Virus record (IMG/VR): IMGVR_UViG_3300008117_000001
DNA from: a virus
DNA: 64,000 bases
Direction: 5' to 3' (one strand)
Made by a program: the position numbers and the translations under genes. Positions 26,676-40,682 of the stretch are shown here, piece after piece (positions within the stretch are counted from its first letter, which is position 1; each line of letters starts with the position of its first letter). The notes beneath the pieces were generated by a model, which was not told where the DNA came from, did not search any database, and saw nothing but the letters and a program-made list of their open reading frames with translations.

Positions 26676-27815
26676 TCAAATGAGAGAAGAAAGAGAAACA
26701 AAAACGTCAGAAATAACTTTATCTATTGAAGAATGATTCTGAAAAGTTGTTTCAGAGTTATTAATAAAGTTCTTAACGGCTTCATCAAAATACAAAGGTG
26801 GAGACTGAAGAGAACGAAGATACTTGTAGTATCTATTCTCATTATAGTCATATAGATTTCCAGAATCTTCGGACTCTTCATGGGAAAGGCGAACATCATC
26901 AGGATCAATTCCGTAATGGTCAAAATAATCAAGAATTCTTGATGTGCCAATTTCTTGAATAGTTGAATGAACTCTTTCAGAGGTACAAGGATTCGGCCAA
27001 GGAATGGAAGATATATCATTAAGAGATATTTTTTCCCAAGCAGAAAAGACATGAGATATAAAAGAATAATCTATATAAAAAGTAAAAGGACTAATCGGTG
27101 AAGCGAGAGGATAAAATGGGTTAGCCGAAAATTCAGAGCGACGGTTAATTTGAAAAATGCATTCAGCAATGTTCATTGTAAGATCAAGATTTGATCCAGA
27201 GTTCCATATCCAATTATATGCTGCGTTAACAACGCCAGAAACGCTATTATCATAGCGATTTATTTCTTCCATGCTATCAAACATAGGATTGCACAAAGTG
27301 GCATTATTATAAAAATTAAGAAGTGGTGGCAAATAAAGTCTTGAAGAAGAAAAGTCAGCACCCTGTAAAGAATGAGACATGAAGTACATAGCTATTTGAT
27401 TGGGATAATGTACTCCATTAAAAACGGAATATGAAACAAAATAAACAGTCCAAGGAATTGGAAGTCTGTATATATAATTTTTAGAATTATCATAATCAAT
27501 ATTGTCAATAACAGCAGGAATTACTTGTATGTTATTATACGTAGGAGGACGTTCAAAGATAACAACTTTGTTATCAATATGAATTAATCCCGGAGGAAGT
27601 ATTCCGGTATCAAAATGAAGTAAAGAGTTATCATTTGATTTGTTTAGATAGTTGATAACAGGAGATATTAATTCGGGGGAAATATCTACAAAAAGAGAAT
27701 TAACAGACAAACTATTGCGATAACAATCGTAGCCTATAGTATCTTCATAGTTGGGGTGATTAAAAGAAAAGCTTCTATAAGAAGAAGAAATGTAATTAAA
27801 GTTTGACATATTCAT
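26676..27815 (-). CDS. Prokaryotic E2-like protein (Prok-E2 family D / PRTRC-B-like), paralogue 3
   Basis: VIFERPP...LPIPWTVYF...RLYLPPLLNFYNNATLCNP; the Cys follows the P-x-x-N motif. Confidence 0.55.
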   Translation of the reverse strand: MNMSNFNYISSSYRSFSFNHPNYEDTIGYDCYRNSLSVNSLFVDISPELISPVINYLNKSNDNSLLHFDTGILPPGLIHIDNKVVIFERPPTYNNIQVIPAVIDNIDYDNSKNYIYRLPIPWTVYFVSYSVFNGVHYPNQIAMYFMSHSLQGADFSSSRLYLPPLLNFYNNATLCNPMFDSMEEINRYDNSVSGVVNAAYNWIWNSGSNLDLTMNIAECIFQINRRSEFSANPFYPLASPISPFTFYIDYSFISHVFSAWEKISLNDISSIPWPNPCTSERVHSTIQEIGTSRILDYFDHYGIDPDDVRLSHEESEDSGNLYDYNENRYYKYLRSLQSPPLYFDEAVKNFINNSETTFQNHSSIDKVISDVFVSLSSLI

Positions 27816-29424
27816 CCTTAGAAACTACATCATACAATGCGGTTGATTGACAAGGGAAATAAAAATCGTTTTCAATATAAACTTTTAACATCTCCAAATA
27901 AAGATCATGAAGAGTCATATCGGAAGAAGAAGGATTAATAAAATAGATTTTAGAATCTTCAAAATTATAAATAGGAATAGAAGAATTTTGAAGAGAATCT
28001 AAAACAGACTTATTAATATTAATAGGAATATCTCCATTACTTAAGTGGTTGTTAAGATAGTTCATAGGACTGTAAGCAACTGGAGAATTGACTAAAATAA
28101 TATTAGTAGTACTGGAGTCATATTCCGCATAAGACATGTTTTTAGCGGAAATAGAACTGATTAAATTACGAATGTAAGAACTATCTAGGGTACGATAATT
28201 TCTATGTTGAGACGTAATAGACTCAAAAGAAATAGGCTTAAAAGCAGAAGAATTGTGATGATTTGATGCAAATATAGAATTGTCTTTATTCTTATCTATA
28301 TCTTGATACATAAAATCTATTTCTTCAAGAAGAGCTAAAACCTCAGAAAGTGTAAAAGTAGAAATTATAGACAATATTGCATAATGAGAATAATCATGAG
28401 GCAGATTAGCAAAAAACTTAGAAGGAGCAGATTTATATACGGAATATATCTTAGAGATTTTATTTAACCCTGCTTTTTCCATAGTTTCTTCATCTGGAGA
28501 AAAAAGTTTAATTAGATTAGGAATAGAAGAAAGAAATTTAGGATTAGGATTTTTAGCGTTAAGTTGATGATAAAATTTAGAAGTATAAAGATATAGCCAA
28601 GCATTAGTAAGATCTGCGTTCCAAGAACCAGCAAAAAACTCGTTGATCATATAGGCATACAATGAAGCAGGAGTTGTATTGGCGTTTTCCAATGGAAGGT
28701 CAGAGAGACTGCCGGAATAGCATATTCTTGAATCAGGATAAGTATTTGGAAGATATGTCGGATAGTAGTTATCGGACATTGAAGTCAAAGACTTATGAGA
28801 AAAATACATGTACTGAGATCCACCAGGATAATTTGGATTAAAGACATAGATTGTCCAAGGTATCCAAACAGTTTTTGGTGGAAGCTTTTTTTTATACGCA
28901 GAAGCACCACCGGGCTTATAATCTACTATGGCTTGAAAAGGAGGACGCTCAACAAATATAGTGCCGTCAGAAGAAATGTATCTTGTTGCTATTGGATAAG
29001 CAGATTTAGGAATAAAAGATTGAAAAGACTCGTTATAATATTTAGTTAAATCTTCGGTTGGAATTGAACACAACCGAGAAATCTGAGCTTGTACTAAAGA
29101 AGGAGGAGAAAGAGGTGTTGAATTATTATCCTTTTTTAGTTTATTAAATTTAACTTTATCTAAAGGATAAGCAGGAGAGAATATGTTATCTACTTCTTCA
29201 AGCAGATGAGACTGAGTTATGTACTGTAACTTAAAAGATTCTACAGTACAATAAACTGCAGCTCTATAACCAGTAATATTAGCAGCATGAACGTATGCAT
29301 AGGAGGAGCTAATACTGGCACTAGAAGAACTAGGATTATTATTATAATGAATCTCGTAAGAAGAGATATCTTCAGAATTAACTACTGAATAAAAAGAACT
29401 GCAAGATTGAGATTGGAAAGACAT
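27796..29424 (-). CDS. Prokaryotic E2-like protein, paralogue 2
   Basis: IFVERPP...VWIPWTIYVF...PTYLPNTYPDSRICYSG. Confidence 0.55.
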   Translation of the reverse strand: MSFQSQSCSSFYSVVNSEDISSYEIHYNNNPSSSSASISSSYAYVHAANITGYRAAVYCTVESFKLQYITQSHLLEEVDNIFSPAYPLDKVKFNKLKKDNNSTPLSPPSLVQAQISRLCSIPTEDLTKYYNESFQSFIPKSAYPIATRYISSDGTIFVERPPFQAIVDYKPGGASAYKKKLPPKTVWIPWTIYVFNPNYPGGSQYMYFSHKSLTSMSDNYYPTYLPNTYPDSRICYSGSLSDLPLENANTTPASLYAYMINEFFAGSWNADLTNAWLYLYTSKFYHQLNAKNPNPKFLSSIPNLIKLFSPDEETMEKAGLNKISKIYSVYKSAPSKFFANLPHDYSHYAILSIISTFTLSEVLALLEEIDFMYQDIDKNKDNSIFASNHHNSSAFKPISFESITSQHRNYRTLDSSYIRNLISSISAKNMSYAEYDSSTTNIILVNSPVAYSPMNYLNNHLSNGDIPININKSVLDSLQNSSIPIYNFEDSKIYFINPSSSDMTLHDLYLEMLKVYIENDFYFPCQSTALYDVVSKDEYVKL

Positions 29425-31349: not shown

Positions 31350-31641
31350 TTTGCATTACCTCTAGCATTTGTTTGCGCGATTGCTGCAAAGTTTCATGAA
31401 AAGCTTTACGAGCTTCGTCAGTAGCAAAAGCAAGTTGCCCAACTAAAGCTTCAGTAAAAACTGCCTGCTCACCATAGCTAATAACAAGTGTAGCCACTTG
31501 CTTTTCAATGGATTCGACAGATGTTTCAAGAGTTTTGAGACGGTCTTCAACCTGAGCTGCTAGACCATTAATAATATCTTGAAAGAATTTTGTAAGAAAC
31601 TCAGCTGTTGTTTTATCAAGGTATTCGTTGTTGTCTGTCAT
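31255..31641 (-). CDS. Coiled-coil hypothetical protein
   Basis: 128-aa ORF. Confidence 0.7.
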   Translation of the reverse strand: MTDNNEYLDKTTAEFLTKFFQDIINGLAAQVEDRLKTLETSVESIEKQVATLVISYGEQAVFTEALVGQLAFATDEARKAFHETLQQSRKQMLEVMQNASKGILADENPRVASAVNNLAEEKLSNSDA

Positions 31642-32279
31642 ATTTCATACCAATCTTGATTATTAGTGACATAAGAAGTCAAGGATAAATCCATAAGATA
31701 TGAGATAGAACAAATATCTTGACGAGTTACCTTGATTTGATCTACAGATAAAGGAGATTTCATATCAGGAATAAAAGCACCGCTGTCACTCTTGCGGGCA
31801 GCAAAGTGCCCACACTTCCAAACAAATGAAGTGGAATCATAAGATTCGCTGGACTGCCAGTAATGTGCTTTAAATATTCTAGATATGGGCTTGCCATCGA
31901 TAACGGCGCCACCATAAGAAACAAAGCCTTCGTTAGTAGGAACGCCCATCTTTTCGTTTTGAGGATAATTGGTTACAGCATTTCCGGTAGTAATAGACTT
32001 AAGGTAAGCAGCGAAGTCTATAGCATCTACGAAAACAGCGGTGCTGCTAATAAGCTTACCTTCAGGAGAAGTTTTGCCAATATCAAGTTTCATTTTAAGA
32101 GCTTGATGCCATGGACGAATAGCTAGAAAACCAGACTGAGTTTTAGATCTAAACCACTTTTTGTATAGCTCTTGATTAAACTCTTTATTATCAGAGTTCT
32201 TAATGGTATCAGATGGTGAACCATCGTCATCAAGAGAGGATAAAAAATCCTCAACATTGCTGTAAACATTATCAGTCAT
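31638..32279 (-). CDS. Hypothetical protein
   Basis: 213 aa, AAGGAG RBS. Confidence 0.75.
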   Translation of the reverse strand: MTDNVYSNVEDFLSSLDDDGSPSDTIKNSDNKEFNQELYKKWFRSKTQSGFLAIRPWHQALKMKLDIGKTSPEGKLISSTAVFVDAIDFAAYLKSITTGNAVTNYPQNEKMGVPTNEGFVSYGGAVIDGKPISRIFKAHYWQSSESYDSTSFVWKCGHFAARKSDSGAFIPDMKSPLSVDQIKVTRQDICSISYLMDLSLTSYVTNNQDWYEI

Positions 32280-32291
32280 TGTTTCTCCTTT

Positions 32292-33896
32292 TTATTTCCA
32301 TGTCACTGATGCTGGTTGCTTTTGCGTTGAAGTCTTAGAGAGCATTAGTATAGCATCATCCATCTGTTCTGTGGATGCCCAATCCCACTGCTCAAGAGCA
32401 TATTTATACATAGATACAACTGTCTCATGGTGCTTCATCCAAATAATATTCTTCATCTTTGGAGCATAAGTAAGAATATCATTTGTTTCAATTGGGCGAA
32501 GGGAATCGGAAACAACATAAAACTTAGTCTCTCTAATCAAAGAAACTATCTCTGCACCAGTCATATACTGAGTGGATTGAGCAAGAGCGTCGTAATCATA
32601 AGAGTGATCGGTATCAATCTTAGAAAGATGTATCTGGAAGATGTGTTTGCGCTCCTCATAAGAAGGAAGACCAACAAACATAATCTTATCAAAGCGGTCG
32701 GCACGCAACATCTCTGGTCTCAAAGAATCAAGAGAGTTAGCTGCACAAAGAAGGAAAGTATCCTCTGGCAATTCCTGAAGACCAGTTAGGAACTCTCCAT
32801 GCACACGATCAGTGGTGCCACCATCAACATGGGAAGAGCTGGAGCCACCACTAAGATCTCGACCAAACTCGTCAATCCAAACGCACAAAGGAGACATAGC
32901 GCGAATCTGCTTAAAGACTGCACGCATGTTAGCCTCCGATTGGCCAATGAAAGAATTCATAACCTGACTGATACCAGTACGAGCAAGATCAAGATCAAGC
33001 TCTTTGGCGGTTGCCTGACAAATAGCAGACTTGCCAGTACCAGGAACGCCAACCATCAACAGTCTTCTAATTGGAGTGACGCCGAAAGAAGCAGTGCGCT
33101 GCTGGTCTTTGCGAAGAATGGCAGTACGGCGAATGATATCTTTAATATTATCAAGACCACCAATATCAGAAAAAGATATTGCAGGCTTAACTATTTCAAG
33201 AATACCATTCTTCTTTATATTTGCCATCTTGACGTCATAAATATACTTGGGATCAATTGTAGAGTTATTAACAACAGACATCAAGCAGAGATCAATAAAC
33301 TGCGACTCACATAGACCAATGCCAGCATTGACAACATCTTTTACAGAAACATTATTAAGAAGTCGATCATGAGAAGCGGTATTGATATGATTGACTATTG
33401 TTGCTAGCTCTTGAGGTGTTGGAATAGAATCCTCTAAAACATTGAAAAGATGGAGAAAATCCTCAGGGCACTCAAGAGAAGAAACGAAAATAAATTGAAG
33501 CGGCATAGCTGCAATATCATCAGACCAAAAAGCTGAACGGTAAGCAGACTTGAAGTGAGAAAGAATAGAAGAGTATGGAGAGATTGCATCTGCCGGAGAA
33601 GAAGCAATATTTACAATATAAGTAGAACGAGTAAGAGATTTCTCAGTAGTAAGATAGTGAAGAGCTATCTGAGGATCGAAAGTTACAATATGACTTTCTG
33701 AGCTCATCTCTGGATAAGTAGGATTTTCAACAAGAATAGGCTTCCATTTGCCATCAACAAATTTAGAAAAGCCATTGAGAAAATCTATAGTATAAAAATT
33801 TCGAGAAATAGTAGAAGTAATGATATCGGTAACCCTAGAAGGATCAGATGACTGAACCCAAAGGTTAGGATATCCGAGTTTAATTTTATCAAACAT
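32292..33896 (-). CDS. AAA+ ATPase (Ycf46/Cdc48-like single C-terminal AAA module)
   Basis: FSDIGGLDNIK, Walker A GVPGTGKS, Walker B VWIDE, SRH LRPEMLRADRFD. Confidence 0.9.
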   Translation of the reverse strand: MFDKIKLGYPNLWVQSSDPSRVTDIITSTISRNFYTIDFLNGFSKFVDGKWKPILVENPTYPEMSSESHIVTFDPQIALHYLTTEKSLTRSTYIVNIASSPADAISPYSSILSHFKSAYRSAFWSDDIAAMPLQFIFVSSLECPEDFLHLFNVLEDSIPTPQELATIVNHINTASHDRLLNNVSVKDVVNAGIGLCESQFIDLCLMSVVNNSTIDPKYIYDVKMANIKKNGILEIVKPAISFSDIGGLDNIKDIIRRTAILRKDQQRTASFGVTPIRRLLMVGVPGTGKSAICQATAKELDLDLARTGISQVMNSFIGQSEANMRAVFKQIRAMSPLCVWIDEFGRDLSGGSSSSHVDGGTTDRVHGEFLTGLQELPEDTFLLCAANSLDSLRPEMLRADRFDKIMFVGLPSYEERKHIFQIHLSKIDTDHSYDYDALAQSTQYMTGAEIVSLIRETKFYVVSDSLRPIETNDILTYAPKMKNIIWMKHHETVVSMYKYALEQWDWASTEQMDDAILMLSKTSTQKQPASVTWK

Positions 33897-33947
33897 TGTG
33901 GTATCACCGTAATACTAGTTGTAGGCTTTTCAAAAAATATAGGGGGT

Positions 33948-33983
33948 GGGGGGAGGGCACTCATAAAGAGTAACCCTCCCCCC
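33948..33983 (-). terminator. Intrinsic terminator-like hairpin downstream of the Ubl gene
   Basis: GGGGGGAGGG/CCCTCCCCCC 10-bp stem, with a T-run downstream on the - strand. Confidence 0.6.
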
Positions 33984-34022
33984 GCCGAACAGTGTTAAAA
34001 ACAACTGTTCGTAAGTGGGCAA

Positions 34023-34277
34023 TCAGCCCTTCTCGCCAGCACGACGATGGAACTCGACGTTCTGGCCAGGCTGGATTACCGCGTTCTCATCAAGCTTGTC
34101 CTTGCCACAGTAGGCAACAGCGTCAGTGGGGATGCCCCAGATCTTGCTGAACTGCTCACGGACTTCTTTAACGCTCTTGCCAGCAATGTTGCTAGGCTGG
34201 TTGTAAACACCATAACGGATGTTTGCCATTCCAGTGGAACGGTTTGGCTGAGCGCCGGAATTGTTGGAAGTTTCCAT
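34023..34277 (-). CDS. Ubiquitin-like (beta-grasp) modifier protein
   Basis: 84 aa; SVKEVREQFSKIWGIP...LDENAVIQPGQNVEFHRRAGEKG; ends in Gly like PRTRC-C/BubA-type Ubls; directly follows the E1. Confidence 0.8.
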   Translation of the reverse strand: METSNNSGAQPNRSTGMANIRYGVYNQPSNIAGKSVKEVREQFSKIWGIPTDAVAYCGKDKLDENAVIQPGQNVEFHRRAGEKG

Positions 34278-34299
34278 TGTGTATTATCTCCTATTTATA

Positions 34300-35064
34300 T
34301 TATGCGTTAACTGGTTGATTTAAAGATGAGTGCATTCTGTCGTATGGTTCAGACTTGCCAATACCAAGATCGAAGAAGATCTCTGTCTCTTCTGGACTCT
34401 GATTGGACACTATTGTTTTCTGAACTCTACCTAGAATAAACGATGCAACCGCCATGTTAGTGGCAAGAAGCTGGGTTCCACCTTCAATCTCAGAACGCTC
34501 TTGACAGCTAAGTTCACCAGGATTCTTATCCGGAGGATTATGATACTCTGGATGAAACTCAGCTGGATGGGCTGTTATCTCAACGCCATCGCGTTTCTGA
34601 TAATGATATATGGAACCGAAAAGAGCATCGTCATTACCGCCAGTGAAGACGTCAACGTTGTTCAACTTTGAAGCAGCGTCGAAAATAATTTTTCTTGCAG
34701 CAAAGTTGTCAACAACAGCAAAGACAACATCATTGTCTCTAATAAGATCACTTGCTTTGATCTTGGGACTTTCTTCGTCTGTAACGCCAGAAAAGTTATC
34801 GTCAACAACCCACTTAGCCACTGGAATTATAGTGGTCTTAGGAAACTGAGGAACTAGCTCAGTAGCTTTAACGACAGCTTTGTTACCAAGTTTAGTGAAG
34901 TCTTGACGCTCTTTATTTTTTTCCTCATAGGTATCGCCGTCAACAATAATAAGAGCAGATCCAGGGAACTTCCACTCAAGAAGACGAACGAGACCAGCAG
35001 CAAGCCATGTACCAATGCCGCCGGCTCCAACAAGAATAAAACGTTTAGAATCATTCGGATTCAT
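34300..35064 (-). CDS. ThiF/E1-like activating enzyme
   Basis: VGAGGIG, VDGDTYEEKNKERQ, GNKA, VVDNFAAR, candidate catalytic Cys in ELSCQE. Confidence 0.9.
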   Translation of the reverse strand: MNPNDSKRFILVGAGGIGTWLAAGLVRLLEWKFPGSALIIVDGDTYEEKNKERQDFTKLGNKAVVKATELVPQFPKTTIIPVAKWVVDDNFSGVTDEESPKIKASDLIRDNDVVFAVVDNFAARKIIFDAASKLNNVDVFTGGNDDALFGSIYHYQKRDGVEITAHPAEFHPEYHNPPDKNPGELSCQERSEIEGGTQLLATNMAVASFILGRVQKTIVSNQSPEETEIFFDLGIGKSEPYDRMHSSLNQPVNA

Positions 35065-36751
35065 ATATATCTCTTTCTGTAAAATATTCAGAATATAAAT
35101 TACACCCATCGGAAGTTATGGTATCAGCATAGTTTTCCGGCTCTTTGTCTTTGGGTGAAGATATAAAATTGATTATTGTAGATGAATATCTTGGGCACAT
35201 GGTTGTGTAATAATGTTCGCATTTATGGCATTCAGATTGCGAAGCATAAACGTCAAATTTGCCCATAAAATTATCAAAGTCAAAAGCATCCAAGCTAGTT
35301 ACTTGCACTTGACAGTAACAGTCGATGATTTTTTGATTACAACAAAGTGTAAGATTTTCATCTGAGAGAGATATGTCAGATGATTTCCACTGAGAATCAA
35401 GATAGGTGCTTATGAGATCTGGAGTCAGTCTAAGTAGCAAATAGTTGTTTTCAACATCTTTACCCAACATGTATAAAGCTACATCTTGAGAGATGTTTCT
35501 TTGACGGCAATATTCGGCAACATCGTAAACAACTTGATCTACTGGCGTGTCCGGCTCACATAAGGGAATATCACAAATAGCGCAGCAGTGGTCAACATAG
35601 ATAGAATTAATAGGGAGATACGAAAAGCAAGATGGGCAGGAGAATTTGCCTTTTTCAATAGTGGAGCTTGCTTCGCAGACAAGAATAGCTTGCTGTTCAT
35701 ATCCTATTGCTTCCTCTATAATATCAAGAATATGGGGTGAATAGTTAACAAAATTAGTTAACTGAGTGTTATTGGGTCCAGCCGCCGTAGTAGGCTGAGT
35801 AGGAATTTGGGTTTGTGGATGAGGCTGTCCAAGATTGGCCGTGCGAGTACCCCCCATATTGGGGGGGCTGACTTTTTTTACTTTATCAGTCCACCCTACA
35901 ACTTCGGGATCTGGAGCTCTTTCTATGGTATAGCCCTCAAAAACATCTTCTGGATCAAGCTTGTAAGCTTTACCGGCCATCTGCATTTCGATATAATACT
36001 GAGTTGCTCCATTGTTGACAGACTTCTGCCAACCAAATGTGATATGGATGCCATCGAAGTCAGCTTGGTCAGCATGATCAGTGCCTGAAGCGTAAGCGCT
36101 CATTCCTGGATGACTGTGAACTGAGCCAACGATAATAACATTGTCAGGCTTCACCTGAGCAATGCTGTCGGGATCATAATTACAGTGAACAGAAGTATTA
36201 ACTTGGTCAGGAACTAAGATTCCCCAACCATCAGAACCTTCTTTGTCCTGGTCAAAAGTAAGCATGACAATAGATTCAGTGCCATGCTGAGCATCGACCA
36301 ATCTAAAGAACTGATCAAGCTTTTCAATAAGCAAATGAGGAATGGGAGGCATATTATAAATAGCCTCTTCTTCAAGACTGATGAATTCGGCGCTTAGTTC
36401 TGGGCGAACAGCCGATACGGAACGACCAACAAAGTTGTTAACAACTCTATAGATCTGAGAAGATTTTACAATAACAGGAGGTGGCGCTATAGCAGCAGTT
36501 TTGTTAGTGTTATTGTAAGTGACAGTACCAGACTTAGGGGCAGATGTATTTGTTGGTTTAATTTCAGTTTCTTGGTTTGCAATCAAATAATAAATATTGA
36601 AACCAAAAGATTCAACACACTCACAAATATCATCTCTATCAGCGATAAAAGTAGGAAGACCATCGTTAGTGATCCAAAGAGGATTGAGATCTTCTAGAGT
36701 AAGATAGTCTTCTTCTTCCTGATCAAAAGGAAGAGTTTGCTGTTCGGACAT
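35051..36751 (-). CDS. JAB/MPN+ (JAMM) isopeptidase with a C-terminal Cys-rich region
   Basis: E...HSHPGMSAYASGTD is an exact H-x-H-x7-S-x2-D JAMM motif; several CxxC pairs follow. Confidence 0.9.
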   Translation of the reverse strand: MSEQQTLPFDQEEEDYLTLEDLNPLWITNDGLPTFIADRDDICECVESFGFNIYYLIANQETEIKPTNTSAPKSGTVTYNNTNKTAAIAPPPVIVKSSQIYRVVNNFVGRSVSAVRPELSAEFISLEEEAIYNMPPIPHLLIEKLDQFFRLVDAQHGTESIVMLTFDQDKEGSDGWGILVPDQVNTSVHCNYDPDSIAQVKPDNVIIVGSVHSHPGMSAYASGTDHADQADFDGIHITFGWQKSVNNGATQYYIEMQMAGKAYKLDPEDVFEGYTIERAPDPEVVGWTDKVKKVSPPNMGGTRTANLGQPHPQTQIPTQPTTAAGPNNTQLTNFVNYSPHILDIIEEAIGYEQQAILVCEASSTIEKGKFSCPSCFSYLPINSIYVDHCCAICDIPLCEPDTPVDQVVYDVAEYCRQRNISQDVALYMLGKDVENNYLLLRLTPDLISTYLDSQWKSSDISLSDENLTLCCNQKIIDCYCQVQVTSLDAFDFDNFMGKFDVYASQSECHKCEHYYTTMCPRYSSTIINFISSPKDKEPENYADTITSDGCNLYSEYFTERDIYESE

Positions 36752-36805
36752 TATTTCTCCTTAATATTAATATTTCTAGTTATTTGTATGTGTGTAATAA
36801 ATATA

Positions 36806-38194
36806 TTAAAAAGGTGATTCTTCAATAAATTGAGGAGAATCGGGCGATTGTTCAACTGGAAATTCAGGAGTGGAGCAGTTGAGACAATAGCCATCGTCAT
36901 TTAAAATAAATGAATCAAACATAGGATGAGTATGCCAAATGCCATTATCGCATTCACCGCAATACTTATATTGCAAAGAAGTAGCAACAGTTAATGATAT
37001 CCAACAATCAGACTTGTTCAAATACAGAATATCACCATAGTCAGGATGGTGGTAATTTTCTGTATTTATACAGTAGACATATTCTTCAAAGCAGCCGTCG
37101 CATATGAAAGCTGAATTATTTGTGGTATTGGGAGAGGAGTTATCGGAATAATACTCTTCACAACCATCGCACATCCAGCTATCGTCATCTTCTTCTTCTT
37201 CCTGAGAAAAGACAGGAGCGGCTATACTCTGATTAATTTTTACAGCTTCAGAGTTTGCGATAACATTGATAACAGGAGGTTGATTAGTAGAGGCATTGTA
37301 AGCCTGCTTGAACCAATCAAAAACTTTTTTGTCGGGCAAAGTGTAATCAGAACGAAGTATTTGATTAACAGGTTTTGGAATAGTTGTATCAGTATAGTAT
37401 GCCTGATAATTACCGGTTATAGCGTCTGCTACAGTCAAAGGTTGACCATTAGGATAGTGTTTATCCTGATTGTCTCGATCCTTAACTAAAACAGGTATCC
37501 ACAACTCTGGATCAAGAGTCCACTCATATCCATTGTCGGCAGAGTATGACTGCCACTCGGAAGGATCGTAAAGATAAGATGGCTTTTTATGAGAAGAGTA
37601 AAAACGAGGACCATCAGTCTCTGACATATTTTGATCGTTGTAAGCTTCGGTTCCAGAGCATCGGTCTAAAATTTTAGCGAGCTTTTCACCGAAAGGATAA
37701 GAAGATATGTCTTCGTTGTGATACAAGCAGATCCAGCCAACACCATTTCCGCGGTAACCCTTACAATTAATATTAGGAAGGTTTACGTGGTAAAGCGGAG
37801 CAGCGGGATAAGTTATGGGAACAGGAGAATAAAATGTTCTAGCTCCATAAATGTTGCCGTCCATAAGATCGGCAATAACAATTCTGTAGGGCTGAGCAAC
37901 GTAATACTTAACAGCAGAACGATCTCCTTCGTATTGGCCCCAGTTGATATAATACATGCCAGGCTTATGCTGATAAACAACTTGAGTATGATTTCCAGCA
38001 GAACGAAGGGCAAGTAAACCAGAACCATCAACAGGCATTAAGCCAGTGTCGACATAAGAATACGAAGAAAATGAAGTATAAAAAGATGTCATGTCTTTAT
38101 CGGTGACATGATCTAAACCAAAAGAGTTAACAGAAGAACGAAAAGTTAGATTTCCGTCTTCGGTGTTAACGAATGAATATTGAACGTTGCTCAT
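36806..38194 (-). CDS. Prokaryotic E2-like protein with C-terminal Zn fingers, paralogue 1
   Basis: YYVAQPYRIVI...APLYHVNLPNINCKG...VGWICLY; CDGC repeats; first gene of the JAB-E1-Ubl run. Confidence 0.65.
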   Translation of the reverse strand: MSNVQYSFVNTEDGNLTFRSSVNSFGLDHVTDKDMTSFYTSFSSYSYVDTGLMPVDGSGLLALRSAGNHTQVVYQHKPGMYYINWGQYEGDRSAVKYYVAQPYRIVIADLMDGNIYGARTFYSPVPITYPAAPLYHVNLPNINCKGYRGNGVGWICLYHNEDISSYPFGEKLAKILDRCSGTEAYNDQNMSETDGPRFYSSHKKPSYLYDPSEWQSYSADNGYEWTLDPELWIPVLVKDRDNQDKHYPNGQPLTVADAITGNYQAYYTDTTIPKPVNQILRSDYTLPDKKVFDWFKQAYNASTNQPPVINVIANSEAVKINQSIAAPVFSQEEEEDDDSWMCDGCEEYYSDNSSPNTTNNSAFICDGCFEEYVYCINTENYHHPDYGDILYLNKSDCWISLTVATSLQYKYCGECDNGIWHTHPMFDSFILNDDGYCLNCSTPEFPVEQSPDSPQFIEESPF

Positions 38195-38215: not shown

Positions 38216-38620
38216 TTATTCTTCTATTTCTTTGAAGATGCTGTCGATGCCTTCGTCAACGTCTTTAGAAAAATCACCAAAAGCCCAAGCAAACCAGTGG
38301 GGATCATCGTTAATTATTTTAACGACATTCAATTTAGTTTCGAGTTGATCATGGGCTTCGACTAGATCAGACAAACGAGAAAGTGCTTTGGAAAGTTTTT
38401 TAAGATCATTTTTATTTGCACCTAGCATAAGAATATTTCTTAGTACTGGAATGCCAGAAACGTAAAACTTTTCTGATTCAATTATGGCATTTATTCTTTC
38501 GTCCAAGGTATCATAAGAGTTTTGTATTTCAGCTTTAACCTTGTTTGCCATAGAAAAAGAAAAGTTGAAATTATCCATAGCGATTTTAGATGCGGGGGGC
38601 AAATTATCTGGGTGCGTCAC
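38216..38620 (-). CDS. Hypothetical protein
   Basis: 134-aa ORF. Confidence 0.65.
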   Translation of the reverse strand: MTHPDNLPPASKIAMDNFNFSFSMANKVKAEIQNSYDTLDERINAIIESEKFYVSGIPVLRNILMLGANKNDLKKLSKALSRLSDLVEAHDQLETKLNVVKIINDDPHWFAWAFGDFSKDVDEGIDSIFKEIEE

Positions 38621-38882: not shown

Positions 38883-39021
38883 AGTGTTGTGGTGTTACTG
38901 TCGTGAAAAAACTAGCTAGTATAATGTCAATCTGTTTTTCGGGGGTTTTATTCTTCAGTCTATTATTAAAAACTTTAGCAGATAAACCTGCTAAGACAAA
39001 TGGAAGAATTAAGAGGTGCAT
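38803..39021 (-). CDS. Hypothetical protein
   Basis: 72-aa ORF. Confidence 0.5.
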   Translation of the reverse strand: MHLLILPFVLAGLSAKVFNNRLKNKTPEKQIDIILASFFTTVTPQHFGEFNEDIKDEFTTSTEEGTITYQNI

Positions 39022-39470
39022 AATGCAATATTCCTTTTTGCGGAGCGGTATTTTGCGCCATCAGTTCCTACAAAATTCAATAAGAGTTCACTGACGGCAA
39101 GAACACCGAGACCGAGTGATGTTGTGAAGTTAAAAATAATATTTAAAAGGAATAATATAAAAGCAGTAAGTGAGCCTACAATAGGACCCGATAAAGCAAC
39201 TTTTAGTTTTGACTCATTGGATAAACCTGGAGCACGAATAAATGCTATAGCAAATAGTGGAAGAGGAATAAAAATTGGCAATGAAGCTTTTGAACCAAGT
39301 TTTCTGGCCATAAAATAATGAGATATTTCATGAGCAAAAAGAACTAGGAGAGCAAAGAAAACAAATGGACTATGTATAATAGAATAATTAACTGCAGCTA
39401 CCGCAGAAGCTGTAGCTATAGTCCAAGTTATCTTTGGTATTTTGGAAAAGAAAGCTTTTATTTTTTTCAT
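39009..39470 (-). CDS. Minimal site-2 protease (peptidase M50)-like membrane protein
   Basis: HEISH (HExxH) within a TM segment, VALSGP, and NFVGTDG resembling the NxxPxxxxDG motif. Confidence 0.75.
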   Translation of the reverse strand: MKKIKAFFSKIPKITWTIATASAVAAVNYSIIHSPFVFFALLVLFAHEISHYFMARKLGSKASLPIFIPLPLFAIAFIRAPGLSNESKLKVALSGPIVGSLTAFILFLLNIIFNFTTSLGLGVLAVSELLLNFVGTDGAKYRSAKRNIALCTS

Positions 39471-40237
39471 GTGTTAACCACGAGATCAAATGGAACATTA
39501 TAAATTTCTGAAAGATCTTTGAGTAAGCCTTCATTTGCCATAGCGGAAAATAGAAAAGCATAACTTTCAGAAACATAATCATTGTCAACCGGATCATTGA
39601 GCTGATCAAAGTATTTATCGCCATCTTGAATATGGCTATCGTCAAGCAAATACTCCTTTACGGGGAGATTAAGCTGCTTACCTAAATGCTTGTAGATAGC
39701 TCTATCAAGGTTTAGGCAAAACATAGAAATGTTTGCACTTGACAAATAAAAAGTTTGAACATGTTCTAAAGAATATTCTATCTTAAGAAGATCAAATAAT
39801 TCTTTAACGACATTCTCATCTGCGTCAGCATTAATAAAGACTTTGTTCATCATAGAAAGATAGCGAAGTCTTTGAATAATTAAGGCTTCCTTATGATTAA
39901 ACATTTGTATCTTAGCGAAATCACCATTAGTAAGAGTATTAAGAGTGATAGAAATAGCTTTGATATAGGAAGGAGTTTGTACCTTTTGATAATAAGCAGA
40001 TGTTGCTGCATGAAAACTAGCGGCAAGCTTTACTTTTTCTTCATCAATAGGAGAGTTCTCATCAGAAGAAATTTCATCAACAAGCTGCTTAGCAGAAGAA
40101 ATGAAGTCTTCTATAGTTTTATTTTTATTGGAGGAAGATGGCGAATAAGCTTCAGATTGAAGAGCAGCAGAAGAATCTTCTGCATCTACCTCTGGATCAT
40201 ATTCGAAGAGATCATCATCATTCTGGGAGTAGGTCAT
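39467..40237 (-). CDS. Acidic hypothetical protein
   Basis: Track ORF 39467-40333; probable start MTYSQND. Confidence 0.65.
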   Translation of the reverse strand: MTYSQNDDDLFEYDPEVDAEDSSAALQSEAYSPSSSNKNKTIEDFISSAKQLVDEISSDENSPIDEEKVKLAASFHAATSAYYQKVQTPSYIKAISITLNTLTNGDFAKIQMFNHKEALIIQRLRYLSMMNKVFINADADENVVKELFDLLKIEYSLEHVQTFYLSSANISMFCLNLDRAIYKHLGKQLNLPVKEYLLDDSHIQDGDKYFDQLNDPVDNDYVSESYAFLFSAMANEGLLKDLSEIYNVPFDLVVNT

Positions 40238-40682
40238 TTTTGGTGGTAGTCTTTCTGCGGTATTTGCGTTTAGGACTGGTAATTCTAAGATTTTCAATCT
40301 TGGCCATTTGAACAAACTGTTTAGCTTTTTCAATGGTTAAGTTGAGAAGGTCGTTATTAAGATATTGCCTAATAAAATATAAGCGTTGACGATATATGGT
40401 TCCGCCCCAAACACCATCATAATTATATTTAATAGCTTCATGTAAACACTCTACTTGTACAGGACAAGCAGAACACATGCTTATAGCTTTGGCTGCAGAG
40501 GATGCAGATTTATTGTCGCTGTTAATAGAAAAGAAATGATCTGTCGATAAAGATCCGTTTCTACAAAGAGCTTTTTCTCTCCATAGAGAACCTAAATCGT
40601 CAAAGCACTCATAAAGATTAGCAACGTTTTTGGGAGAACCTCTACGAGAAGTAATGGGAGAAGTGGGATTAGAATCCATCAA
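40218..40682 (-). CDS. whiB: WhiB-family Fe-S transcription factor
   Basis: WREKALC...C-x2-CPVQVEC...GVWGG, with a basic C-terminal tail. Confidence 0.9.
   Translation of the reverse strand: MMDSNPTSPITSRRGSPKNVANLYECFDDLGSLWREKALCRNGSLSTDHFFSINSDNKSASSAAKAISMCSACPVQVECLHEAIKYNYDGVWGGTIYRQRLYFIRQYLNNDLLNLTIEKAKQFVQMAKIENLRITSPKRKYRRKTTTKNDLLPE

Follow-up and report, generated by a model that had tools for sequence, protein, structure and literature searches.

The four-gene unit

IMGVR_UViG_3300008117_000001 is an uncultured lake jumbo phage of about 200 kb, and the 64,000-nt stretch of it analyzed here (the window) carries a four-gene cassette built around a ubiquitin-like protein (Ubl). A reading made from the letters alone, called here the sequence-only reading, had proposed that four consecutive minus-strand genes at 34023-38194, closed by a terminator, form a virus-borne operon for ubiquitin-like conjugation. 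All four open reading frames (ORFs) lie at these coordinates (Table 1). They are tightly packed and encode the 84-residue Ubl, a ThiF-type E1, a 566-residue JAMM protein, and a 462-residue protein that is probably E2-like. The E2-like gene is separated by 54 nt from the JAB gene, the JAB and E1 genes overlap, and 22 nt lie between the E1 and Ubl genes. A further gene, g134, ends 21 nt ahead of the E2-like gene and probably shares its transcription unit. The surroundings of the cassette consist of early and replication genes. The G+C content over window positions 32001-38000, which span the cassette and the adjoining AAA+ gene, is 0.39-0.42, compared with 0.31-0.35 in the flanking early-gene region.

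The terminator that was thought to close the unit is present. It is composed of two hairpins, the second of which is GC-rich and followed by a T-run, and it is missed by a simple pattern scan. Its predicted fold has a free energy (dG) of -48.5 kcal/mol and a z-score of -5.4, with none of 200 shuffled sequences folding equally well. A GC-rich hairpin (GUGGGGGA...UCCCCCAC) with a U-run is found downstream of the Ubl gene in 9 of the 10 relatives that were folded, with loop and inner-stem sequences that differ among them. Thus, the terminator-closed, four-gene unit is itself a conserved feature.

Table 1. Cassette genes and nearby features, in window coordinates unless a related record is named; identities are medians relative to the window protein.
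Feature	Position	Strand	Basis	Median identity
g134, 134 aa, upstream neighbor	38216-38620	-	Synteny	
Probable E2-like protein, 462 aa, unnamed family	36806-38194	-	AlphaFold2 model, invariant Cys156	52%
JAB/JAMM metallopeptidase protein, 566 aa	35051-36751	-	Pfam Prok-JAB (just below threshold), JAMM motif	43%
E1, ThiF-type	34300-35064 (~254 aa); longest ORF to 35109 (269 aa)	-	Pfam ThiF	76%
Ubl, 84 aa	34023-34277	-	ORF; AlphaFold2 beta-grasp model	75%
Intrinsic terminator, two hairpins and T-run	~33931-34010	-	Folding versus shuffles	
AAA+ ATPase, classic clade, 534 aa	32292-33896	-	Pfam AAA; downstream of terminator	56%
g213, 213 aa, downstream neighbor	31638-32279	-	Synteny	63% (40 loci)
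Two paralogous genes, 379 and 542 aa, candidate extra E2-like proteins	26676-29424	-	LYxxPxxN...C motif	
HslV-like ORF, examples in relatives	L049:1099-1713; L048:1081-1683; L051:1075-1677; L050	minus in L050		

Components of the cassette

The Ubl consists of a disordered, Ser/Asn-rich N terminus (residues 1 to 15), a beta-grasp core (residues 16 to 77), and a flexible tail, ...EFHRRAGEKG, that runs to the stop codon. An AlphaFold2 (AF2) model built from 25 homologues, with a predicted local distance difference test (pLDDT) score of 79.6, has the bb-a-bbb topology of a beta-grasp fold. When this model is compared with the PDB by Foldseek, ubiquitin, SUMO1, NEDD8, and FAT10 are returned at a probability of 1.0 with template modeling (TM) scores of 0.6-0.68. 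Among 25-30 homologues the C terminus reads EFHR(R)(A)GEKG, in which EFHR.GEKG and the final Gly are invariant and always form the end of the protein. Since no residues follow this Gly, no processing would be needed to expose it. The Ubl has no family match in Pfam, NCBIfam, or PHROG, and none of the 370 metagenomic clusters of its homologues carries a Pfam domain.

By its sequence, the E1 is a bona fide ThiF-domain protein. It matches Pfam ThiF above the cut-off (2.9e-12), and the GxGGxG loop, DGD, NxERQ, and VVDNF motifs, together with its sole Cys (within NPGELSCQ), are invariant in 23 sequences. The most likely start is Met16 at 35064, which is upheld by the homologues, rather than the longest-ORF start at 35109. 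The top NCBIfam match is PRTRC_ThiF (3.4e-7; 29.8 bits with a cut-off of 144.75), and among solved structures it is closest to UBA5 and ATG7, both non-canonical E1s, and to MccB and TcdA (E values of about 2e-3).

In the JAB protein, a conserved N-terminal region precedes the JAB domain (residues 146 to 240; window 36032-36316), and a linker of low complexity connects this domain to a C-terminal half (residues 372 to 550) that is rich in Cys. Its Pfam match to Prok-JAB (2.8e-5, 24.4 bits) is just under the cut-off of 25. The JAMM motif is exact, and none of its residues, E159 and H212-x-H214-x7-S222-x2-D225, varies among 25 sequences. There is also a weak NCBIfam match to PRTRC_A (18.1 bits; cut-off 101.8), and an alignment with Rpn11 (E 0.23) that is confined to the JAMM motif. 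A relation between the N terminus of the JAB protein and the E1, considered on the basis of hhalign, was discarded, since the score of the cleaned alignment equals that of column shuffles.

The 462-residue protein is composed of a UBC-like core (residues ~35 to 232; window 37499-38092) and two CxxC...CxxC zinc ribbons (residues 342 to 440; window 36875-37171). The candidate thioester residue, Cys156 (codon 37727-37729), lies within G-W-I-C-L-Y and is invariant in 263 of 263 homologues, while Cys144, His159, and Cys179 are present in 242, 199, and 172 of them, respectively. That Cys156 is universal and the other positions vary suggests chemistry rather than a structural or zinc-binding role; a zinc site formed by C144, C156, H159, and C179 is thereby ruled out. 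Upstream of Cys156, Asn141 (263/263) and Asn143 (262/263) complete an HxN...GxxIC-like motif. In the AF2 model of residues 1 to 330 (pLDDT 87.2; predicted TM score 0.85), a helix, a beta-meander, a long loop bearing the motif, and then helices follow one another in the order of the UBC fold, favoring the assignment as an E2. Active-site cysteines of E2s are placed about 12 residues ahead of the helix that follows the loop, and Cys156 occupies this position in the model. The top rows of a VIA-align search with the model are mostly UBC/E2, UEV, and RWD chains, including a bacterial CdnG-associated E2, at Z-scores of 3.0-3.9, a range below 4 that the tool itself flags as unreliable on its own. 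In the ESM Atlas, the closest clusters (score 0.95) are viral families with PF14460 (Prok-E2_D) in 13-20% of their members. Together, the invariant Cys in an E2-like motif, the weak UBC fold matches, the Prok-E2_D-carrying ESM neighbors, and a PRTRC-like gene order (discussed later) make it likely that the 462-residue protein is E2-like, although this is the weakest link among the four part assignments.

Two other features of this protein were seen. Its C terminus (window 36806-36820) ends in [DE]xPF in most homologues. Its first 46 residues (window 38057-38194), modeled as three strands and a helix, align with the single-strand nucleic-acid-binding repeats of PC4, Pur-alpha, and Sub1 at Z-scores of about 3 (root mean square deviation 1.6-3 A over 43-46 residues).

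The motifs on which the sequence-only reading had relied, HxHx7Sx2D, GAGGIG/NKERQ/ELSC, RRAGEKG-stop, and, at residues 133 to 156 of the 462-residue protein, PLYHVNLPN...GWIC, are all present and are invariant or nearly so across homologues. Its assignments of the E1 (by ThiF), the JAB protein (by Prok-JAB and JAMM), and the Ubl (by its ubiquitin-like beta-grasp model) stand. Its E2 is upheld only as probable, given a modeled core that is UBC-like but weakly so and the failure of hidden Markov model and profile searches to yield a significant match.

The E1 and Ubl could in principle serve a different chemistry, in which the E1 would thiocarboxylate the Ubl, as occurs with ThiS, MoaD, and TtuB, and the sulfur would be used to modify a cofactor, tRNA, or DNA base. 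Weak matches of the E1 to the NCBIfam models of MoeB, ThiF, and MoeZ agree with such a sulfur carrier, and the tRNAs and an atypical uracil-DNA glycosylase near the cassette make nucleic-acid modification conceivable. However, the E1 has a single Cys and, as read from its residues, lacks the CxxC zinc motifs that MoeB and ThiF possess; no rhodanese domain is found on or near it; and the Ubl tail ends in KG (EKG) rather than GG. The JAMM peptidase and the Cys-bearing, UBC-like protein are, moreover, strictly co-conserved. The remark that no sulfur-transfer or cofactor-biosynthesis genes sit beside the cassette also holds on a wider scale: no genes for a rhodanese, a PP-loop thiolase/ATPase, or a cofactor synthase were seen among the neighbors scanned or in four near-complete related genomes. 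The sulfur-carrier explanation is thus the least probable of those weighed here.

Conservation and distribution

A search with the E2-like family yields 46 IMG/VR loci, among them that of the window's own phage (L001). The loci lie on contigs that reach 268 kb; several of these have direct terminal repeats and CheckV completeness of 90-100%, which bears out the claim that the machinery is carried by a virus. Of the 46 loci, 42 have all four cassette genes; the remaining four are on truncated contigs that stop short of the full set. The gene order is kept throughout: g134, E2-like, JAB, E1, Ubl, AAA+, g213, g128, and then the two paralogous genes that are candidate E2-like proteins. The E1 and Ubl are the best-conserved proteins of the block, while the flanking genes have median identities of 26-44% to the window proteins (see Table 1 for the block itself). 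This combination of synteny and high identity indicates a core, strongly constrained module rather than a patchy accessory set. Within its clade of freshwater phages of 170-270 kb, the cassette belongs to the core, and it is among the most conserved modules of these widespread lake jumbo phages.

The phage has been seen repeatedly in lake and freshwater metagenomes, in about 15 studies from 2019 to 2025. In an exhaustive profile search, the family of the E2-like protein closes at 228 representative clusters, none of them connected to a named family, and 50,697 deposited phage genomes contain no homologue of this protein. Only one match to the E1 was obtained from these genomes, at 28% identity, in the cultured, 230-kb Bacillus phage vB_BceM_WH1 (L047, record 182508-185319), where a 460-residue, weak Prok-JAB protein is encoded directly upstream of ThiF and a NADAR gene follows; no E2-like homologue was detected in this phage.

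As to the host, the window contains a gene of the WhiB family, which presumably points to an actinobacterium. This is at odds with the NCBI label of a related 193-kb contig, which reads Flavobacterium sp.

One record, IMGVR_UViG_3300042868_009074 (267,766 bp; L012 and L035), carries the whole block twice, in versions that are not identical and are separated by about 215 kb, along with two HslV-like genes. Though scored as 100% complete, this record was probably assembled from two related phages, as a chimera or a concatenate.

A proposed conjugation pathway

Our interpretation, to which we give a probability of roughly 0.65, is that the cassette is a self-contained, phage-encoded ubiquitin-like conjugation system. 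Going by the families involved, the E1 would first adenylate the free C-terminal Gly84 of the Ubl and then hold the Ubl as a thioester on its sole Cys, Cys187 in the numbering of the 254-residue protein. The Ubl would next be handed to Cys156 of the UBC-like protein, whose zinc-ribbon tail would probably choose the target, and an isopeptide bond would then form between the Ubl and lysines of phage or host proteins. The JAMM peptidase would remove or edit the tag; maturation would not require the peptidase, as a terminal Gly is already exposed on the Ubl.

What would become of the tagged proteins is suggested by the adjacent AAA+ gene, which follows the Ubl gene wherever a locus extends far enough. 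In the most divergent loci an extra 2.3 kb separates the two, and only unrelated ORFs were found there. The AAA+ protein has a 230-residue N-domain, an F-I-G pore loop of the aromatic-hydrophobic-Gly type, and invariant Walker A and B motifs. It matches Pfam AAA (2.2e-23) and phrog_8638 (2.2e-64), and below threshold the NCBIfam models of CDC48 (2.5e-35), PAN (1.2e-33), and FtsH. From these matches, it is plausibly a Cdc48/PAN/FtsH-like protein unfoldase; a functional link to the Ubl is suggestive only. The role that we prefer, though we hold it to be less likely than not, is that tagged proteins may be passed to this Cdc48-like unfoldase.

Most relatives encode a further candidate partner. 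An ORF of 204-224 residues that starts MTTII... and contains a GTGS motif matches HslV in NCBIfam (4e-7, below threshold) and in the PDB (1e-3), as well as the beta-proteobacterial proteasome homologue BPH (0.015). Seventeen of 27 related records have this HslV/proteasome-beta-like ORF, on the same strand as the E2-like gene and about 15 kb downstream of it, and so do 9 of the 11 records that are at least 90% complete (examples in Table 1); ClpP was not found in the relatives. One may therefore imagine a phage with its own tag-and-unfold pathway, extended in most relatives to tag-unfold-degrade by the HslV-like peptidase. Such a pathway would amount to a viral counterpart, inside a bacterium, of the ubiquitin-proteasome system, organized around an unnamed E2-like family, but we regard so full a scheme as rather unlikely.

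Several results speak against the conjugation system or its coupling to the unfoldase. The support is entirely computational. All of the fold Z-scores of the E2-like protein fall below 4 (best 3.9), and a Foldseek search of the PDB with its model gave no match. The protein is likewise without a match in Pfam, PHROG, NCBIfam, PADLOC, or PDB sequence models, and PDB sequence and profile searches return only zinc-finger noise. The Pfam E2 families (UQ_con and Prok-E2_A to E) are unmatched at E values of up to 10, both with 30 family members and with 10 divergent ones. An hhalign comparison of the family with the true PRTRC_B/Prok-E2_D alignment gives a non-significant probability of 0.2%; this non-significant alignment is nevertheless collinear, placing KYYVAQPYRIVI on KHYHVPFPxLIF and LYHVNLPNIN on LYQYPFGNVS. 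As for the hand-over to the unfoldase, the AAA+ gene is located beyond the terminator, and its family, phrog_8638, is found in cultured Agrobacterium, Rhizobium, Rhodobacter, and Mycobacterium phages, in which no match to the E1 or E2-like protein was seen. The HslV-like gene was not found in the window or in the closest near-complete relatives (G003 and G008), and thus a tag-unfold-degrade pathway cannot be claimed for the window phage from its own genes. Finally, two metatranscriptome studies contributed contigs that overlap the block, most deeply over the Ubl gene, but these are weak evidence of expression because the libraries may contain DNA.

The points concerning the E2-like protein raise the question of whether an E2 is involved at all. 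In the archaeal SAMP/UbaA and Thermus TtuB/TtuC systems, an E1 alone activates and transfers the Ubl, and by analogy the 462-residue protein could be a zinc-ribbon adaptor, a substrate, or a regulator that resembles a UBC or UEV domain. Its want of a significant sequence or profile match to any E2 family agrees with this, and the fold matches, with Z at most 3.9, include non-catalytic UEV and RWD proteins. Against this, a single Cys is kept in every one of the homologues while other cysteines of the core vary, it is placed in the model where E2 active-site cysteines lie, and the gene order is that of PRTRC-like clusters that contain a true Prok-E2_D. Consequently, we consider tagging that is independent of an E2 to be decidedly unlikely.

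If conjugation by the cassette is true, phages too would use Ubl tagging, much as eukaryotic viruses exploit ubiquitin. The E2-like proteins would then constitute a new family for study, with a single invariant Cys and zinc-ribbon tails, and the cassette, with only four genes and perhaps an unfoldase coupled to it, would be a compact system for probing Ubl tagging in a cell that has no ubiquitin-proteasome system.

Relationship to known systems

The cassette fits the general kind of operon designated class 6d by Iyer, Burroughs, and Aravind in 2006 (PMC1779556). Class 6d operons comprise the same four separate parts, a Ubl, a JAB, an E1-like, and an E2-like protein (a probable one in the phage), and their E2-like protein departs from the classical HPN motif (PMC1779556). 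They were described in bacterial chromosomes, whereas the cassette here resides in a phage; the sole phage case in that work is the lambda/T1 tail-assembly pair TAPI (Ubl) and TAPK (JAB), which is without an E1 or E2 (PMC1779556).

The nearest named relative is PRTRC (ParB-Related, ThiF-Related Cassette), represented by the models TIGR03735 (PRTRC_A), TIGR03737 (PRTRC_B, equivalent to Pfam Prok-E2_D), and TIGR03736 (PRTRC_ThiF). The top NCBIfam matches of the phage E1 and JAB proteins are PRTRC_ThiF and PRTRC_A, and the two systems also have in common their carriage on mobile elements and an E1 without zinc motifs. However, the phage scores given above are far under the PRTRC cut-offs, the E2-like and Ubl proteins have no match to PRTRC_B or PRTRC_C, and ParB_N is unmatched both among the window neighbors scanned and in a set of five records of related phages, of which four reach a completeness of at least 92%. 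For these reasons, the cassette is not a member of PRTRC. Furthermore, the phage E2-like protein is twice as long and bears zinc ribbons, and the carrier is a phage of about 200 kb. We know of no function assigned to PRTRC itself.

A divergent PRTRC-like cluster contains the top plasmid match of the E1, a ThiF protein encoded by the Butyrivibrio hungatei plasmid pNP144 (L053, record 67340-74165). Here a true Prok-E2_D (UniRef 'PRTRC system protein B'), a 558-residue JAB protein, and ThiF are encoded in the same order as in the phage cassette. The pNP144 cluster is interrupted by a Rad52/Rad22 gene and adjoins genes for a helicase and for DNA polymerase III delta. The plasmid may be phage-like.

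Among antiphage systems, Bil (BilABCD) is similar in having a Ubl with an obligatory C-terminal Gly and separate genes for the E1, E2, and JAB proteins, and it performs real protein conjugation (10.1101/2023.09.04.556158; PMC10557695; PMC11601603). It differs in that it is a host defense that tags phage tail proteins, in its gene order, and, for type I Bil, in Ubls that contain two beta-grasp domains rather than the single domain of the phage Ubl (10.1101/2023.09.04.556158; PMC10557695; PMC11601603). In type II CBASS (cyclic oligonucleotide-based antiphage signaling system), the comparison fails on the E1-E2 fusion, as the phage E1 and E2-like proteins are encoded by separate genes, and no CD-NTase is present among the neighboring ORFs scanned. 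Bub operons (6E/DUF6527) combine the DUF6527 serine protease BubE with Ubl-E2 or E2-E1 fusions (PMC11601603). The cassette has no such fusions, and none of 27 neighboring ORFs matches DUF6527 in Pfam. With PADLOC defense models, the E1 receives only weak, partial E1-E2 (Cap2) matches (best 3.1e-5), and the other three proteins receive none. Under the definitions of PMC11601603, the cassette therefore belongs to none of Bil, CBASS, and Bub.

These systems do bear on a third explanation, namely that the cassette neutralizes host Ubl immunity (Bil, Bub, or type II CBASS) or other defenses, with the JAB protein stripping host tags or the phage Ubl acting as a competing or poisoning substrate. The sequence-only reading had offered remodeling of host or phage proteins, countering of host Ubl defenses, and sabotage of co-infecting phages as speculative roles. 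Phages are indeed targets of host Ubl systems, and in CBASS, conjugation by Cap2 has a priming effect that Cap3 reverses (10.1101/2023.09.04.556158; PMC10097602; PMC11601603); the phage for its part owns a JAB protein and a complete conjugation set. Yet a lone deubiquitinase would suffice to strip tags, and no part of the set matches defense-system models beyond the weak, generic matches of the E1. Genes for counter-defense tend to be patchily distributed and to evolve rapidly. The set studied here keeps its synteny in all related loci that are long enough to contain it, with the E1 and Ubl as the slowest-evolving proteins of the block, and such strict conservation of a core block somewhat disfavors a dispensable counter-defense accessory. 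On this evidence, counter-defense appears highly unlikely, and we continue to favor a conjugation system of the phage's own. Bacterial Ubl conjugation has recently been shown to be an antiphage weapon (Bil and type II CBASS); the complete machinery is found here on the side of the virus.

Outside the bacteria, the archaeal SAMP/UbaA/HvJAMM1 and Urm1-proteasome systems also combine a small Ubl, an E1, and a JAMM peptidase with a functional tie to AAA+ unfoldases and a proteasome-type protease (PMC4895103, PMC4569737). The wider phage block parallels this arrangement in its adjoining AAA+ gene and, in most relatives, its HslV-like gene. The archaeal systems, however, are cellular and lack an E2 (PMC4895103, PMC4569737), and the lineage of the window phage yielded no proteasome-type gene. 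Nidhogg, a virus of Asgard archaea, provides another prokaryotic virus with ThiF/E1-like genes, but it has E1 homologues only and has been proposed to hijack the Ubl and E2 of its host (10.1101/2021.07.29.454249), whereas the phage here has the whole set. In the full-text papers that could be searched, we found no account of a complete, phage-borne Ubl cassette: this chemistry is limited there to cells, plasmids, and antiphage defense, and for prokaryotic viruses only E1-like genes (in the Asgard virus) were found reported.

Neighboring genes

Two syntenic genes border the block. Immediately upstream of the E2-like gene, g134 is present in 44 loci and has no family match. On the other side, g213 always follows the AAA+ gene, and it has no relatives of known function in Pfam, NCBIfam, PHROG, or the PDB.

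Farther downstream, the genes for the 379- and 542-residue proteins are paralogous to each other (hhalign 97.6-98.6%). The pair has in common the motifs FERPP, IPWT(V/I)Y, LYxxPxxN...C, and an (F)FxGxWNxDL-like sequence, which resemble LYQYPFGNVSxxGxIC and FFLGKTNND of PRTRC_B, and its ESM Atlas neighbors include clusters that carry PF14460. Neither protein has a Pfam match, and hhalign against PRTRC_B is not significant (0.1-2.3%, a range that includes the E2-like protein), yet the alignments are collinear on LYxxPxxN...C. The paralogues may serve the Ubl of the cassette as further E2-like carriers.

Upstream of the cassette, two other genes are syntenic in many relatives. One (window 39009-39470) encodes a 153-residue membrane protein with an M50-like HExxH segment (Pfam 4.2e-5, below threshold), and the other (window 40218-40682) is the WhiB-family gene.

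The C terminus of the AAA+ protein (window 32292-32330) consists of a variable linker followed, in nearly all homologues, by a W or F within the last four residues (VTWK, AWKI, FKW...). This end and that of the E2-like protein both resemble short docking peptides.

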